The notes beneath the pieces were generated by a model, which did no database searches, was not told where the DNA came from, and saw only the letters and a list, made by a program, of their open reading frames with translations. From the NCBI GenBank assembly GCA_017416535.1, contig JAFQCG010000005.1, forward strand, positions 141,708 through 205,707: a stretch of 64,000 bases of DNA. The letters are read 5' to 3'. This DNA comes from Bacilli bacterium. Lineage in GTDB: Bacteria > Bacillota_I > Bacilli_A > RF39 > UBA660. Below, piece after piece: positions 58,709 to 63,982 of this stretch (within the stretch, counting starts at the first letter, position 1; each line of letters opens with the position of its first letter). Made by a program: the position numbers and the translations under genes.

Positions 58709-59486
58709 AGAAAGAAAAAGATATTTATCTAAAATTAAAAGAGAAAAGCTCTTTGTAAGTTTTTTTAGATTTCTAATTATATTTATTTTTATAATTGGAT
58801 GGGAAGTTTTAGCAAGATTTGATATTATTAATACTTTTACATTTTCTTCTCCAAGTTTAATTATAAAAACATTTGCTGAGTTATTAAGAAATGGTTCTTT
58901 ATTTTCACATATTGGAATAACTTCATATGAAGTAATACTCTGCTTTCTTTTAGCAACTATTATAGGTTTATTATTTGCTGTTTTATTATGGTTTGTTCCA
59001 ATTTTTTCTAAAATTGTAGACCCCTATTTAACTGTATTAAACTCATTACCTAAGGTATCTCTAGGACCACTTATTATTATTTGGGTTGGAGCAAGTATTA
59101 ATTCTATAATACTTATGTCTCTTCTTATAAGTACATTTATTACAATAATTAATATTTATAATGGTTTTACTTCTACTAATAAAAACTATATTATTTTATT
59201 AAAAAGTTTTGGTGCGAATAAATGGCAAATATTTAAATATGTTGTCTTCCCAAGTAATATGCAGGTAATAATTAGTGCTTTAAAAATTAATGTTTCAATG
59301 AATTTAATTGGTGTTATTATGGGGGAATTATTGGTATCAAAAAAAGGTATTGGCTACTTAATCATGTATGGGTCACAAGTATTTAATATTAATTTGGTAA
59401 TTACTGGGGTTGTAATACTGGGAATAATTTCTTATTTAATGTATTTTATAATAGATACGTTTGAAAAGAACTTTAATAATAAATAA
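58695..59486 (+). CDS. ABC transporter permease (SsuC/TauC-like binding-protein-dependent inner-membrane component)
   Basis: 6-TM permease; overlaps the ATPase gene by 14 nt. Confidence 0.8.
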   Translation: MFISEERKRYLSKIKREKLFVSFFRFLIIFIFIIGWEVLARFDIINTFTFSSPSLIIKTFAELLRNGSLFSHIGITSYEVILCFLLATIIGLLFAVLLWFVPIFSKIVDPYLTVLNSLPKVSLGPLIIIWVGASINSIILMSLLISTFITIINIYNGFTSTNKNYIILLKSFGANKWQIFKYVVFPSNMQVIISALKINVSMNLIGVIMGELLVSKKGIGYLIMYGSQVFNINLVITGVVILGIISYLMYFIIDTFEKNFNNK

Positions 59487-59489
59487 AGA

Positions 59490-59516
59490 GACTTATTTGT
59501 ATAAGTCTCTTTTGTG
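59490..59516 (+). terminator. terminator (AGAGACTTAT..ATAAGTCTCT plus U-run) after the ABC operon
   Basis: 10-bp stem followed by TTTTGTGTG. Confidence 0.6.
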
Positions 59517-59537
59517 TGTGAGTTTTTAAATCTTATT

Positions 59538-60506
59538 TTATAATAATTTTAAATCTTTTAATTCTTCTAATGTTTTTTCTTCCCAACTAGAAGCTTGTAC
59601 TTCAGCAATATGAGATTTTTCAAGTAAAAGCATTAAGATTCTTGATTGTCCAATTCCTCCACCTATTGTGTATGGAAGATCTTTTTCTGCTATTTTTTTA
59701 TGATATGGTAATTCTAATCTATCTAAAGCATCGGCTTTCTTTAATTGTTCTAATAATGATTTTTCATCTACTCTAATTCCCATTGATGAAAGTTCAATTG
59801 CTTTATCAATGGTTTTATCATAAATAAGTAAATCTCCATCTAATGACCAATCGTCATAGTCTGGACTTCTTAAGTCATGCTCAATACCTGATTTTAATTT
59901 ATCACCAATACCAATAATAAATACTGCTTTCTTTTCTTTTGTAATTAAATCTTCTCTTTCTTTAGGTGTTTTATCTGGATACATATCTTCTAATTCTTGA
60001 GATGTAATAAAGAAGATTGATTTTGGTAAATCTAAAGTTAAGAATCTATATTTAGTTTTTAAATAAACTGATGTTTGTCTAATTGCTTTATATATTGACT
60101 TAACTGTTTCTTTTAAATAATCTATTGTTCTATCTTCTTTAGTAATTACTTTTTCCCAGTCCCATTGTTCTACATATAAAGAGTGAACTGCATCAACTTC
60201 CTCATGTTTTCTAATTGCTTTCATATCAGTATATAATCCTGTATGAACTGGGAAACCATATTTTCCTAATGCTTCTCTTTTCCATTTTGCTAAAGAGTGA
60301 ACAATTTCGAATCTTTCTTTTCCTTTTGTAAATCCTACTGCTTTTTCTACACCAGTTAATCCATCTTGTAATCCTGATGATGTTTTTACAAATAATGGAC
60401 TTGGTACTTTTGTTAAACTTAATCTTGTTTCTAATTGGCTTTCAAAATATTTTTTTGTTTCAGCGATCATTGTGATCGTTTCATAATACGTTAATTCTTT
60501 TTTCAT
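59538..60506 (-). CDS. asnA: aspartate--ammonia ligase (asparagine synthetase A)
   Basis: VHSLAKWKR, HSLYVEQWDWE, PDYDDWS, SSMGIRVD and TIGGGIGQSR align along the full length with E. coli AsnA. Confidence 0.85.
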   Translation of the reverse strand: MKKELTYYETITMIAETKKYFESQLETRLSLTKVPSPLFVKTSSGLQDGLTGVEKAVGFTKGKERFEIVHSLAKWKREALGKYGFPVHTGLYTDMKAIRKHEEVDAVHSLYVEQWDWEKVITKEDRTIDYLKETVKSIYKAIRQTSVYLKTKYRFLTLDLPKSIFFITSQELEDMYPDKTPKEREDLITKEKKAVFIIGIGDKLKSGIEHDLRSPDYDDWSLDGDLLIYDKTIDKAIELSSMGIRVDEKSLLEQLKKADALDRLELPYHKKIAEKDLPYTIGGGIGQSRILMLLLEKSHIAEVQASSWEEKTLEELKDLKLL

Positions 60507-60695
60507 TTTAATTTTCCTTCTTTCTTAATTTAATTTTTTGATTTTATTTTTTTATTTTGTTTTTTTAAATAAACTAAGATATTTGTAGGAATATCTATTT
60601 TATTTGTATTCATAAAATAGATTTAAAATGAAATTTAATATCTATTTTATGAAGCGTTGTTGTTATTATTGTCTTCTGACATAATCATCACTTCC

Positions 60696-61547
60696 TTATT
60701 TTTTTTGTTTTAGTTTTGGTGTATCTTTATCATCTAATCTTTTTTGAATACTACCTAAAAATTCTTGTTTAGTAAATGTTGTTTCAATTGTTCTTGTTCC
60801 ATTGATTAAGTATGCAGGTTGTTCTGGGTAACAATCTAATCCATCACCTACTGCTAAACTTTCAATCATTTGATAACTAATTGGATGACAGCATCCCATA
60901 AAAATTCTTGTTTGTGTAGAGATATCTATTAGTTGTTGTCTATCTTTTTCAATTAGTTCTTTACATGGTAGTGCTTTTTCAATTTCACTTGCAGAGATAT
61001 GCTGACTTTTTATAATGTATTGTAAATGTTTAATTAATTGTTCACCATACTCTCCTTTGTATTTATCTAAACTTTTTGCGTCTTCTTCAAATCTTACACC
61101 GTACTCATCAGCTTTTCTATCAACAAAATCTAGATAAGCTTTTAGTGCATCATCAGTTTGTCCGTGTAGTTCTAAATATTTTCCTAACATTTCGTCCAGA
61201 GCATATTCTTCAAATAAATCTTGAATGTATACGAACCATATTTCTTCTAATGCATCAGGTGCTAAAAATGGATATTTTTCTGAAATATCATATATTCCTT
61301 TAATAGTTTCTTTCTTAGTTCTTACATCGTATCTTCCACCGAAACTTTGAAATTGTCCAATGAATAGTTTATATTTTTCTACATCCATTTCTACATCTCC
61401 AAGAATTTCCATAATATATTTTGTTCTTGGAATTCTTCTACCAGTATCACATAACATATATTTGAAATCACTATCTTGATATTCCAAATATTCACTTAAT
61501 CGATGCTTTGGTAATTCTTCTTTTTTAAAATACTCTGTTTTTCGCAT
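60696..61547 (-). CDS. hypothetical protein (contains FMGCCHP motif) controlled by a T-box leader
   Basis: RBS AAGGAGGTGAAA 8 nt before ATG 61547 (MRKTEYF). The ORF-track GTG start at 61556 would overlap the RBS. Confidence 0.5.
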   Translation of the reverse strand: MRKTEYFKKEELPKHRLSEYLEYQDSDFKYMLCDTGRRIPRTKYIMEILGDVEMDVEKYKLFIGQFQSFGGRYDVRTKKETIKGIYDISEKYPFLAPDALEEIWFVYIQDLFEEYALDEMLGKYLELHGQTDDALKAYLDFVDRKADEYGVRFEEDAKSLDKYKGEYGEQLIKHLQYIIKSQHISASEIEKALPCKELIEKDRQQLIDISTQTRIFMGCCHPISYQMIESLAVGDGLDCYPEQPAYLINGTRTIETTFTKQEFLGSIQKRLDDKDTPKLKQKK

Positions 61548-61556
61548 TGGTTTCAC

Positions 61557-61860
61557 CTCCTTATTACTAAAATAAAAATACCCGTATCATCCTACAAATA
61601 AGGACGAATACGGGTATCCGCGGTGCCACCTTAATTTATTACTAAAAGTTATTTTAACTTTTTAAATCAGTAATCTCTTTTTCTGCTCTAACAAGCATAG
61701 CAATCTGATAACGGTTTGCTTTCCGAACTAGTCTACTAAGATTTCTCTTTTCGGTAGTTTGCTCCGAGGTGTTCTTTCTCAATAATCTTATAATCGGTTC
61801 ACACTATACCCGACTCACTGTTATAAGCATTAAAGGTACTTTTCCTCATCAATGCAAGCT
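61557..61860 (-). ncRNA. T-box riboswitch leader (probable Asn specifier AAC) with terminator/antiterminator
   Basis: T-box sequence AAGGTGGCACCGCGG (61618-61632 on minus). Terminator ATACCCGTAT..ATACGGGTAT plus U-run (61578-61616). Candidate specifier GAAAG-AAC-A (AAC is rc of 61771-61773). Confidence 0.7.
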
Positions 61861-61861
61861 A

Positions 61862-61890
61862 ATTATAGCATATTTGAGATAATTTGTCAA
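61862..61890 (-). promoter_or_regulatory. consensus sigma-A promoter TTGACA, 17 nt, TATAAT driving the T-box leader
   Basis: Minus-strand reading TTGACAaattatctcaaatatgcTATAAT. Confidence 0.65.
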
Positions 61891-61942
61891 ATATTTGTTT
61901 GACTATTACTTTATAACATAGAAAAAAGATGTATAAAACATC

Positions 61943-62767
61943 TTAATATCCTTCTTTTAATCCAGCACTATCATAGAATAAACTTCTTCCACCTTCTTGA
62001 TATTTTTTAGTATATCTAAAGTAGACAAAAATAGGTTTTCCGGTAGAAGTTATATACACGTAATTATCACATGTACAACGATCTTGATCAGCCATCTTTT
62101 TTGTTAACATAAATTCATCATCAAATTCATTAACAATATCTTTGTAGTTTATAAAGTTATCTTTTGTATACTCATTTACTTGCATCATTGATATAAATCC
62201 AACCTGATTTATTTGAGTATCATTTAAACTTTCTAAGAAATTAATTACTTCTTTTTTACTATCAATATAATCTTTTATTAGTAAACAATTTATTCGTAAG
62301 TCCGCTTTGCTCTTTAGTTGTTTTATTTTATCAAGTGTGATTGTTTTAGTTTGAAATACTTCATTATTTTTTTCATCTAAATAATGATGTCTACTTAATT
62401 GAATTGATTCAATTGGATACTTATTTAACATTGGAAGTGTTTTTTCTAATAATATACCATTGGTATTAAGTGTAATTCTGGGATCGTATTTTTTTAGTAG
62501 TTTTAATAAATCTTCCAAGTTTTCACAGTTTAGTAGAGTTTCTCCTCCGCTAATTGAAAATCTGCTTATTTTTTTATGTACTATGTCTATTATACTTTCC
62601 AACTCATTTAGATCTAATTTTCCAAAGTTCTTATTACATTCATTTGAACAAAATTTACATTTGGCATTACAAATATTTGTTACATTAATATAAAATGGAA
62701 ATTCATTACATGGTGAACATGCATATTCTTTTATATTATATTTTTTACCATTAACATCTAATTCCAC
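61943..62767 (-). CDS. radical SAM enzyme (small, 274 aa, no SPASM domain)
   Basis: CX3CX2C NICNAKCKFC, SISGGETLL (GGE motif). GTG start preceded by TAGGAAAT. Overlaps the 3' end of the repeat-peptide gene by 17 nt. Confidence 0.75.
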   Translation of the reverse strand: MELDVNGKKYNIKEYACSPCNEFPFYINVTNICNAKCKFCSNECNKNFGKLDLNELESIIDIVHKKISRFSISGGETLLNCENLEDLLKLLKKYDPRITLNTNGILLEKTLPMLNKYPIESIQLSRHHYLDEKNNEVFQTKTITLDKIKQLKSKADLRINCLLIKDYIDSKKEVINFLESLNDTQINQVGFISMMQVNEYTKDNFINYKDIVNEFDDEFMLTKKMADQDRCTCDNYVYITSTGKPIFVYFRYTKKYQEGGRSLFYDSAGLKEGY

Positions 62768-63188
62768 TTTGATTTCCTACTTCTTTATTTATTGGTAAAA
62801 TCATTTTTGAATAAGGTTTCTTACTTGAGAATGAGCTTCCACATGACGGATGTCCTCCAATGTTTCTATTATTTGAACTTCCACATGAAGGATGTCCTCC
62901 TCCATATCCCCAACCGCGACTCGAACCACAAGATGGGTGTCCTCCTCCATATCCATAATCATCATTTGATGTTCCACATGATGGATGTGCCATCATTGTA
63001 ATTTGATCACTTTCTTGAAAATAATTTTCATTAATTTCATATCCATGTTTTCTTAATGCTTTATTAAACACCTCTCTTGATTGTGGTGTTGCGAATAGGA
63101 ACGGACATAAATTTCCTAAATCTTCAACCGATTGAACTGGATTTTCTGAACGTCTAAATATTTTTTCAATTAATTGTTCTTGTTTCAT
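62751..63188 (-). CDS. 145-aa peptide with four tandem G-G-H-P-S-C-G-[ST]-S repeats; candidate radical-SAM-modified precursor or metal-binding repeat protein
   Basis: RBS GGAGGGAAAC before ATG 63188. About 67-aa N-terminal region, then AHPSCGTS...GGGHPSCGSS...GGGHPSCGSS...GGHPSCGSS, and a C-terminal Cys. DNA shows 4 copies of CCACATGA(A/T)GGATGTCC on plus. Confidence 0.6.
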   Translation of the reverse strand: MKQEQLIEKIFRRSENPVQSVEDLGNLCPFLFATPQSREVFNKALRKHGYEINENYFQESDQITMMAHPSCGTSNDDYGYGGGHPSCGSSRGWGYGGGHPSCGSSNNRNIGGHPSCGSSFSSKKPYSKMILPINKEVGNQSGIRC

Positions 63189-63265: not shown

Positions 63266-63982
63266 TTATTCGACTGTTTTATCTTCAATTATTGTATCGC
63301 AATATTCACATCTTACCTTGCTTCCTCTGTTAACATCATTGATTGCTCCACAATTTTCACATCTAATTGATATAAAGTCTTTTTCTTTTTTTGTCTTTTC
63401 TACTGTATAATATAAAATTTCTTTATCAACCTCATTAAGCTTGATACCATTAATTAAATCTTTATCATATAAATTTTTTAAGTCGTTAAACACTTTTTCT
63501 TTATATTTATCTAAATTTTTAATAGATGCACCTGGCATTCTAGCTGCCATTTCTTTTATAGTTAGGTGATTTTGATAGATAAATGGTTTGTATTTAATTA
63601 ATAATTCATTATCTTCTGGGCTACATGGTAGTAACATTCCATTAATGTGATCTATATGCAAATCACCAATTTGTCTTTTATTTTTTAAATATCTTATTTT
63701 TAAAATACATTCATCGTATGAACATCCTGCTTTTGCGGCAATCTTTTTAATATCTTTTTTCTTTTCAACTACGATTGCTTGATAAATTATGTTCATTTTC
63801 TTTTCAAATAATATATCTGCAGGAATAGAATGTTCATAAAACTTGGCATATCTTTGATATGACTCTTCATTTATGTTTTCACTATTTTTCAGATTGTTAT
63901 ATTTCTTTTTTACTTTGATTCTATTATCTATTGAAATTATTACTATTATTAAAATTAAAGCAATTATAAATACATTTTCCAT
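63266..63982 (-). CDS. membrane-anchored protein with C-terminal zinc-ribbon (CxxC...CxxC)
   Basis: N-terminal TM FIIALILIIVIISI; C-terminal CENCGAINDVNRGSKVRCEYCDT. Confidence 0.45.
   Translation of the reverse strand: MENVFIIALILIIVIISIDNRIKVKKKYNNLKNSENINEESYQRYAKFYEHSIPADILFEKKMNIIYQAIVVEKKKDIKKIAAKAGCSYDECILKIRYLKNKRQIGDLHIDHINGMLLPCSPEDNELLIKYKPFIYQNHLTIKEMAARMPGASIKNLDKYKEKVFNDLKNLYDKDLINGIKLNEVDKEILYYTVEKTKKEKDFISIRCENCGAINDVNRGSKVRCEYCDTIIEDKTVE

Follow-up and report, generated by a model that had tools for sequence, protein, structure and literature searches.

A probable asparagine-codon leader switch between an Asn T-box and asnA in uncultivated gut Bacilli

The window analysed here, a 64-kb stretch of contig JAFQCG010000005.1, comes from an uncultivated gut bacterium (Bacilli bacterium, RF39/UBA660) and carries on its minus strand, on which all window features below lie, a locus built around asnA. 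Read in the direction of transcription, this locus holds a sigma-A type promoter (61890..61862), a T-box leader RNA (61861..61597), the gene of an orphan protein called p286 here (61547..60696), a leader open reading frame (ORF) of 11 codons (60682..60647), the asnA gene for aspartate-ammonia ligase (60506..59538; 322 amino acids [aa], none of them Asn), and an intrinsic terminator with a 12-bp stem and a T-rich tail at the operon end (59512..59485). Promoter, Asn T-box, p286, leader ORF, asnA and terminator are best explained as a single operon, and its most unusual part is the short spacer in front of asnA, which by the comparative evidence set out below very probably contains an Asn-codon leader switch.

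The promoter reads TTGACA-17-TATAAT with an extended TG in the spacer; as the sequence-only reading of this DNA had claimed, it matches the consensus at 12 of 12 positions, and it is the sole such site within 59300..62100. AsnA is assigned by the TIGR00669 equivalog model (329.9 bits against a cutoff of 292.8) and by PF03590 (E = 1.7e-95), and is an ordinary member of its family except for the absent Asn. Since neither a terminator nor a promoter was found between the T-box and the leader ORF, the two probably share one transcript. A promoter of asnA's own in the spacer was considered and rejected: the best candidate matches 9 of 12 positions, a score equalled by shuffled sequence, and the spacer varies in both length and sequence among related loci. 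A terminator scan and stem energies likewise yielded no credible terminator between p286 and asnA, and asnA is therefore most likely co-transcribed with p286 and controlled at the level of translation. The sequence-only reading had not decided between co-transcription of asnA and its separate attenuation by inverted repeats in the spacer; our analysis favours co-transcription and finds no stand-alone set of attenuator hairpins in the repeats.

These repeats, three in number and lying at 60593-60652 (CATAAAATAGAT, ATCTATTTTATG, AATAAAATAGATATT), are real, and what had been overlooked is their role as the probable core of a leader-peptide switch. The leader ORF, MSEDNNNNNAS* (codons ATG TCA GAA GAC AAT AAT AAC AAC AAC GCT TCA TAA), overlaps the first repeat and has five consecutive Asn codons at 60670..60656. 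Its own ribosome-binding site (RBS), AAGGAAG at 60697..60691, overlaps the p286 stop codon TAA (60698..60696). Of the 14 genomes that encode p286, 11 retain the mini-ORF. A DNA pattern made from structure only (S2...S3...loop, segments described below) retrieved 23 metagenome contigs, 20 of them real, and asnA lies downstream in every real match long enough to show it; the matches in L017, L023 and L024 are chance hits in GC-rich unrelated DNA. In all, 27 distinct loci, every one in front of asnA, retain the leader ORF, its Asn run and the pairings; each has a well-spaced RBS (kept as AAGGAAGTGA, AAGGATGTGA or AAGGTGG), an ATG, an in-frame Asn run and a stop codon near S1, the first of the pairing segments. 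The Asn run comprises 2-10 codons, in which AAT and AAC interchange, and all length changes and indels are in frame. The residues flanking the run vary among loci, the variants including MSDDNNNNNAS, MEADNNNNNVS, MTDGNNNNNKLS, MSDDNNNNNKT, MSDDNNKT, MSEEDNNR, MSDDNNNNNHFIK, MIEENNNTKKA, MSDDNNDNNNKKT, MESENDNNNDNNNDNNNKT and MEDGNNS. A T-box precedes the leader in every scanned locus that reaches far enough upstream, with or without p286.

One might suppose that the mini-ORF is untranslated and its Asn run no more than incidental AT-rich sequence in a structured intergenic RNA, as the genome has 26.7% G+C, AAT and AAC triplets are common in it, and the ORF is annotated in no public record. We consider this highly improbable, given that RBS spacing, ATG and in-frame Asn run are kept in all 27 loci, that AAT and AAC swap freely with the amino acid retained, and that the stop codon begins within -3 to +7 nucleotides (nt) of the S1 start despite indels in multiples of three and differing flanks. 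An Rfam search of the spacer gave no family, and at a permissive E-value it returned only chance matches to eukaryotic families.

The spacer RNA contains four segments with alternative pairings. S1 (CAUAAAAUAGAU, 60651..60640), in which the leader stop codon lies, pairs with S2 (AUCUAUUUUAUG, 60622..60611); S2 can pair instead with the 5' part of S3 (AAUAAAAUAGAUAUU, 60604..60590), and the 3' part of S3 pairs with S4 (AAUAUCU plus tail UAGUUUAUUU, 60583..60567). Three further stretches are complementary to the asnA initiation region: L (UUUCAUUUUAA, 60633..60623), in the loop of hairpin 1:2, matches the asnA start region; UUCCU in the 3:4 loop region (UUCCUACA, 60591..60584) matches the asnA Shine-Dalgarno (SD) sequence AGGAA; and the S4 tail (UCUUAGUUUA, 60579..60570) pairs just upstream of that SD. 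We counted pairs in a MAFFT alignment of the 27 sequences that had been fitted to no structure, with registers slid by 1-3 columns as controls. Standard pairs occupy 99.1% of cells for 1:2, 99.3% for 2:3 and 96.3% for 3:4, compared to 32-60% in the slid controls. Among the 27 loci S2 varies solely at its first base (A or G), and all changes in S1 and S3 are A-to-G transitions that retain a G.U pair with S2. As judged by these sequence comparisons, the anatomy and the conservation of the putative switch are solid.

The asnA initiation region (60532..60501) consists of a pre-SD stretch (UAAAUUAAGA, 60532..60523), the SD (60518..60514) and the start region (UUAAAAUGAAA, 60511..60501); in the alignment of the 27 loci a conserved AAUUAAGAAAGAAGGAA block at the asnA start stands beside a variable spacer. 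An unconstrained minimum free energy (MFE) fold from the p286 stop to asnA +17 has -34.5 kcal/mol and four helices: S2:S3, L with the start region, UUCCU with AGGAA, and the S4 tail with the pre-SD stretch. The same closed architecture is the MFE fold in 18 of the 27 sequences. It is paired in 89.7% of cells (45-60% when slid), and 13 cells are changed on both sides, with a covariation score of 0.090; none of 500 shuffles attained either value. When CAU is anchored on the AUG, the L:start helix has 9-14 contiguous pairs in all 24 anchored sequences. Four positions upstream of the AUG, one clade set has an A-U pair, two others have U-A and two more G.U, a distribution that requires at least two independent double substitutions on the AsnA tree. 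The S4-tail:pre-SD helix is paired in 87.6% of cells, with three pairs changed on both sides, and the loop:SD helix in 90.7%. In the most divergent clade, whose leader is MEDGNNS, the loop is short and lacks the anti-start sequence; its place is taken by GAUAAAUCU, which pairs with the clade's own altered asnA codons 3-5 (AGAUUUAUC) at -10 kcal/mol, the best value among 23 start-site-like background sequences on the same contig.

Constrained folds bear on the two states that the leader might select. With 2:3 enforced, the SD is paired in all 27 sequences and the AUG in 22 of the 27; with 1:2 enforced, the AUG is free in all 27 and the SD in 16; and with 1:2 and 3:4 both enforced, the SD is free in all 27, for which the mean cost is 1.3 kcal/mol. 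On average about 2 kcal/mol separates the two states, as expected of a switch. The asnA SD and AUG are thus predicted, on folding models, to be sequestered in one of two leader-selected structures.

The same four segments could be read as a classical trp-type attenuator, in which a stalled ribosome masks S1, 2:3 antiterminates, and otherwise 3:4 terminates transcription before asnA. The four-segment layout behind a cognate-codon leader is indeed the textbook arrangement, six or seven of the ten nt after S4 are U in about two thirds of the loci, and only 4-10 nt separate the last Asn codon from S1. Against this, the 3:4 hairpin has 6-8 AU-rich pairs with a single G-C and an energy of -1.5 to -3.7 kcal/mol (mean -2.4), compared to -27.4 kcal/mol (z = -4.3) for the 79-nt segment with the T-box terminator (61640..61562). 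The ten nt after S4 hold anywhere from one to seven U, several clades having no U-tract (for example, UAAUUAAAGA in L009 and AAAAACUAAC in L019), and the terminator scan, which flagged the asnA terminator, did not flag 3:4. S2, beginning 20-26 nt beyond the leader stop, is out of reach of a terminating ribosome, and the supposed antiterminator 2:3 would itself sequester the asnA start and so defeat induction. In L010 (4340-4392) and L011 (4792-4843) the leader, S1 and S2 are lost, and with them any antiterminator, and yet the 3:4 hairpin (GATATGTCCTACAAGTATC) is kept in a 50-nt spacer directly before the asnA RBS, an arrangement that would be fatal if 3:4 were a terminator and harmless under translational control. 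Hence, 3:4 does not appear to be a terminator, and we regard classical attenuation as unlikely at this locus. Hairpins 1:2 and 2:3 were also rejected as terminators, as a U-run follows neither.

Other spacers show further rearrangements. In L014 (4531-4551), like L010 and L011 a natural deletion variant, the spacer measures 19 nt and p286 bears an internal deletion. Between S4 and the asnA RBS of L016, L018 and L020, the otherwise A-rich stretch holds an additional GC-containing hairpin (UUGUUGUCGAAAUCUUUGAUUUCGUGUCAACAA), perhaps a small mobile or repetitive element, that their sisters L029 and L035 lack.

A control of two levels can be proposed for this operon. Together the two levels would sense charged and uncharged tRNA-Asn in succession. 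At the first, as membership of the T-box family shows, RNA polymerase reads through the strong T-box terminator only when uncharged tRNA-Asn binds, and p286, as an Asn-starvation protein, would be subject to this level only. At the second, the translation state of the leader would select either the 1:2 or the 2:3 RNA. In the 1:2 state L would be locked in the hairpin loop and S3:S4 would hide the anti-SD loop, leaving the asnA start open; in the 2:3 state L would pair with the region of the asnA start codon, the CCU-loop with the SD and the S4 tail just upstream of it, and asnA would be closed. The leader stop lies at S1, so that a ribosome finishing the leader would melt S1:S2, and because the stop ends 20-26 nt before S2 this ribosome could not cover S2, which would be free for S3. 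With Asn-tRNA plentiful, ribosomes would thus reach the stop, melt S1:S2 and let the RNA settle into the slightly more stable closed state. With Asn-tRNA scarce, a ribosome would stall on the Asn codons and block those following it, the co-transcriptionally formed 1:2 hairpin would survive, and AsnA would be made. The last Asn codon ends 4-10 nt short of S1 and, where the Asn run is long, its opening codons lie at least 19 nt upstream of S1, so that a stalled ribosome would leave S1 mostly or wholly available. The proposed direction of the switch rests on the target: a biosynthetic gene needs induction by starvation and 2:3 closes the asnA start, and starvation must therefore favour 1:2. That full translation closes the asnA start and stalling on Asn codons keeps it open is, as a complete mechanism, a proposition that we hold to be evenly poised between right and wrong.

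Several observations weigh against it. With 1:2 alone enforced, RNAfold keeps the SD paired in 11 of the 27 sequences, and release of the SD needs the weak 3:4 hairpin. In the window sequence the closed state has the lowest energy even with S1 free; since it is the global minimum, the open state must be kinetically trapped. Purely thermodynamic folds with ribosome-masked segments were tried and set aside, as with this global minimum they could not tell stall positions apart in the window sequence. The sequences are AU-rich, and the L:start complementarity ranks only in the top ~5-10% of start-site-like sequences per genome. Most helix positions are invariant, and the covariation consequently rests on few columns. 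A ribosome halted at the final Asn codon would extend 4-6 nt into S1 and could mask part of it as in the classical logic; both the direction of the switch and the level of control are what we infer from the arrangement. Finally, p286, which we would guess with low confidence to be an enzyme or accessory factor supporting asparagine supply to or by AsnA, has been lost or has decayed in several lineages.

The switch might also act on mRNA processing or stability, or through protein binding at the CCUACAA 3:4 hairpin, and not by direct occlusion of the RBS. Stalled ribosomes are known to stabilise downstream mRNA in Bacillota, as in ermC. The CCUAC of the 3:4 loop (loop CCUACA(A), 60589..60584 in the window) is invariant in the 27 loci, the hairpin is kept even after loss of the leader, and the loop:SD helix is a mere 3-5 bp without double-sided covariation. 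Pairing of this extent is not obviously enough to require an invariant CCUACA(A) loop, and a protein or a tertiary contact may be involved there. However, no partner protein or RNase site can be named, and the covarying L:start and S4-tail:pre-SD helices would be left unexplained. p286 cannot be an obligatory partner, as the switch is present in eight loci that lack the gene. This explanation seems to us improbable as a replacement for translational sequestration of the asnA start, although the two could coexist. Two other proposals for the loop were discarded: pairing of CCUAC with GUAGG in the T-box terminator loop, dropped as coincidental, GUAGG belonging to the terminator stem, and mimicry of a tRNA anticodon loop, for which U33 is absent.

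The first-level sensor is itself an ordinary member of the T-box family, and what is unusual is what it controls and what comes after it. It is the sole Rfam family detected in the window and matches RF00230 over its full length (model positions 1-219 of 219, E = 1.9e-22) at 106.2 bits, the gathering score being 93, with Stem I, Stem III and an antiterminator that carries the T-box bulge. The T-box core AAGGTGGCACCGCGG, as RNA AAGGUGGCACCGCGG, lies at 61632..61618, and UGGC in its bulge pairs with the tRNA 3' end GCCA. The specifier in the Stem I specifier loop is AAC (Asn; 61773..61771), after which come, in the Rfam alignment, the conserved purine A and the Stem I strand CCUC. We collected 28 orthologous T-boxes from 14 species-representative genomes and 23 metagenome contigs; they score 101-115 bits. 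GAAAG-AAC-A is present in 28 of 28, while Stem I below the specifier loop varies and covaries (GAGG/CCUC, GGGG/CCUC, GGAG/CUCC). The sequence-only reading had proposed this T-box with AAC as a candidate specifier and had named GAA or AAA as codons that might occupy the position instead; the full-length match and the fixation of AAC in all 28 bear out the proposal. GGUGGCACC (i.e. UGGC) is kept in all related T-boxes and fits a discriminator G. The cognate tRNA-Asn gene is not in the window, and this fit is therefore one that we infer only. These observations support Asn specificity of the T-box at the sequence level.

The intrinsic terminator of the T-box (61619..61569 by folding) is a long GC-containing hairpin (GGAUACCCGUAUUCGUCCU...AGGAUGAUACGGGUAUU) with the U-run UUUUUAUUUU. 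It shares the 3' strand of the antiterminator, in agreement with the earlier suggestion that the hairpin can re-pair. A second T-box with a different leader sequence lies ~1.4 kb downstream of asnA in L009 (7345-7562) and L012 (7269-7486), and a 6S RNA gene is found in L014 (7447-7623).

Both proteins encoded by the operon avoid the amino acid in question. AsnA has no Asn in 322 residues and p286 one in 283, compared to a mean of 6.35% (standard deviation 2.4) for 48 window ORFs, among which the next lowest content is 3.0%. Summed over related loci, AsnA proteins contain 6 Asn among 6673 residues; for the p286 family the average content is 0.98%. Being nearly free of Asn, AsnA and p286 have evidently been selected to be translatable when Asn-tRNA is scarce, so far as composition can tell.

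The sequence-only reading had given p286 as a protein of 286 aa. The frame exists; its likely start is ATG 61547, in agreement with public gene calls and preceded by the RBS AAGGAGGTGA at 61562..61553, giving 283 aa. The window protein has no Pfam or NCBIfam match, there is no consistent Pfam match among 35 family members, and no relative was found in the Protein Data Bank by sequence or by fold. A word-indexed search of 5.8 billion proteins gave 115 relatives and an exhaustive hidden Markov model (HMM) search of 1.84 billion cluster representatives gave 134. Full-length relatives have ~250-310 aa, no relative exceeds 310 aa, and none of the 134 HMM matches shows fusion to a further domain. 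The sources, where named, are 'Bacilli bacterium', 'uncultured Tenericutes' and 'uncultured Mycoplasma sp.', from gut and rumen assemblies. An AlphaFold2 model is confident and mostly helical (pLDDT 90.9, pTM 0.84). The family has 24 invariant columns, including S18, D51, H183, D202, R214 and K260, a pattern that suggests a defined binding or active site. The FMGCCHP motif singled out earlier is found family-wide in the sense that its second Cys is nearly invariant and its Pro invariant; its other residues are not conserved.

A tie of p286 to asparagine had been surmised and a survey of homologue neighbourhoods proposed. This survey finds the order T-box(Asn)-p286-asnA in all 14 p286-encoding genomes, which together with the near absence of Asn from p286 upholds the tie. 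p286 is nonetheless dispensable: the gene is frameshifted in L013, internally deleted in L014 and absent from eight metagenome loci. Behind the T-box terminator of L016 (9340-9625, minus strand), L018 (3255-3420) and L029 (500-655, minus strand) lie GAAAGGAGGAAAACCTTATG and a stub of seven codons, MLLKIIN*, apparently what is left of the RBS and start of a p286 gene since deleted. L021 has its leader RBS immediately after the T-box terminator.

Of the neighbouring genes, those directly upstream of the T-box promoter (63188..61943) comprise a 145-aa ORF with four GGHPSCGSS repeats (His-Xaa-Ser motif) and, overlapped by it at its start, a 274-aa radical SAM protein with weak similarity to peptide maturases of the HxsC, YydG and WgkB type (TIGR03977, 40.8 bits, far under the cutoff). 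They look like the precursor and maturase of a ribosomally synthesized and post-translationally modified peptide (RiPP), and the same pair is also present in L038 and L040. Upstream of the pair in the window, a 238-aa ORF (63266..63982) without family assignment has an N-terminal hydrophobic segment and C-terminal CxxC zinc-ribbon-like motifs. Earlier mention of gatCAB holds insofar as gatA and gatB are encoded in the window; no link between them and the T-box/asnA locus was found.

Leader-peptide attenuators are textbook matter for Trp, His, Phe, Thr, Leu and Ile/Val in Proteobacteria and Actinobacteria. Naville and Gautheret describe leader peptides as hardly known outside these two phyla and rare in Bacillota, with a His leader in bacilli (PMC2965389). 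The literature that we searched contained no paper on an Asn leader or on an asnA T-box, and Rfam no asparagine example. The element in front of asnA shares with the trpL, hisL, pheL, thrL and leuL attenuators the cognate-codon short ORF and the mutually exclusive 1:2, 2:3 and 3:4 pairings. It differs in that 3:4 is not an intrinsic terminator, in that the control codons lie upstream of S1 and not inside it, and in that a terminating ribosome cannot cover S2, with 2:3 closing a downstream start. In ermC, cat, cmlA and MifM-yidC2, as predicted here, the ribosome on an upstream leader decides whether a downstream SD and AUG are sequestered. Those systems, however, sense drugs or membrane insertion through nascent-peptide arrest, and stalling disrupts the first hairpin and frees the SD; here the signal would be the supply of aminoacyl-tRNA at hungry codons, a stalled ribosome would leave the first hairpin intact, and sequestration would be long-range, with three helices over ~130 nt. 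The T-box part has what is found in other Asn-specific members of RF00230: a full model match, an AAC specifier, a UGGC bulge, and a terminator and antiterminator.

For a T-box and a leader peptide that sense the same tRNA, the one characterised precedent we know of is the rtpA operon of B. subtilis. In this at operon, which encodes anti-TRAP, the leader rtpLP comes after a Trp T-box (Chen & Yanofsky 2003 Science 301:211, 2004 Mol Cell 13:703), and complete translation of RtpLP downstream of the T-box prevents translation of RtpA (summaries in PMC2311275 and PMC10327191). Of known systems it is the nearest. In both, on the model proposed here, a T-box gates transcription and a short leader with codons of the same specificity gates translation of the next gene, giving one tRNA species two sensors; complete translation of the leader means OFF and stalling ON, in the direction predicted here; and both occur in Bacillota. 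By analogy, this precedent makes the proposed logic of the switch plausible. The differences are that the amino acid is Asn and not Trp, that the target is a biosynthetic enzyme and not an anti-regulator, and that in most lineages the p286 gene stands between T-box and leader. Further, the rtpLP stop overlaps the rtpA SD, so that the terminating ribosome blocks it directly, whereas the leader stop here (60649..60647) is ~130 nt from the asnA SD (~140 nt from the asnA start), and an alternative RNA pairing would have to relay the signal.

Taken as a whole, these features may, though we put it forward tentatively, define an undescribed class of amino-acid leader switch: the first for Asn, with a long-range translational relay of three helices and a first hairpin kept intact by stalling, downstream of an equally Asn-specific T-box, and accompanied by p286 as a new-fold, Asn-free family in the Asn-starvation response. 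That the leader switch by itself is a mechanistically new subclass is an idea we would entertain on similarly uncertain terms.

If this is true, it would be a second and mechanistically different case beside rtpLP, and the logic of two checkpoints would be a recurring design. It would also mean that hungry-codon sensing can act on translation initiation across ~130 nt of RNA with no need for transcription-translation coupling, which matters for Bacillota, where such coupling is reportedly weak. The switch element is short and self-contained. AsnA and p286 offer a clean case of avoidance of the cognate amino acid, and the locus places an orphan protein family of gut and rumen Bacilli in the context of Asn starvation.

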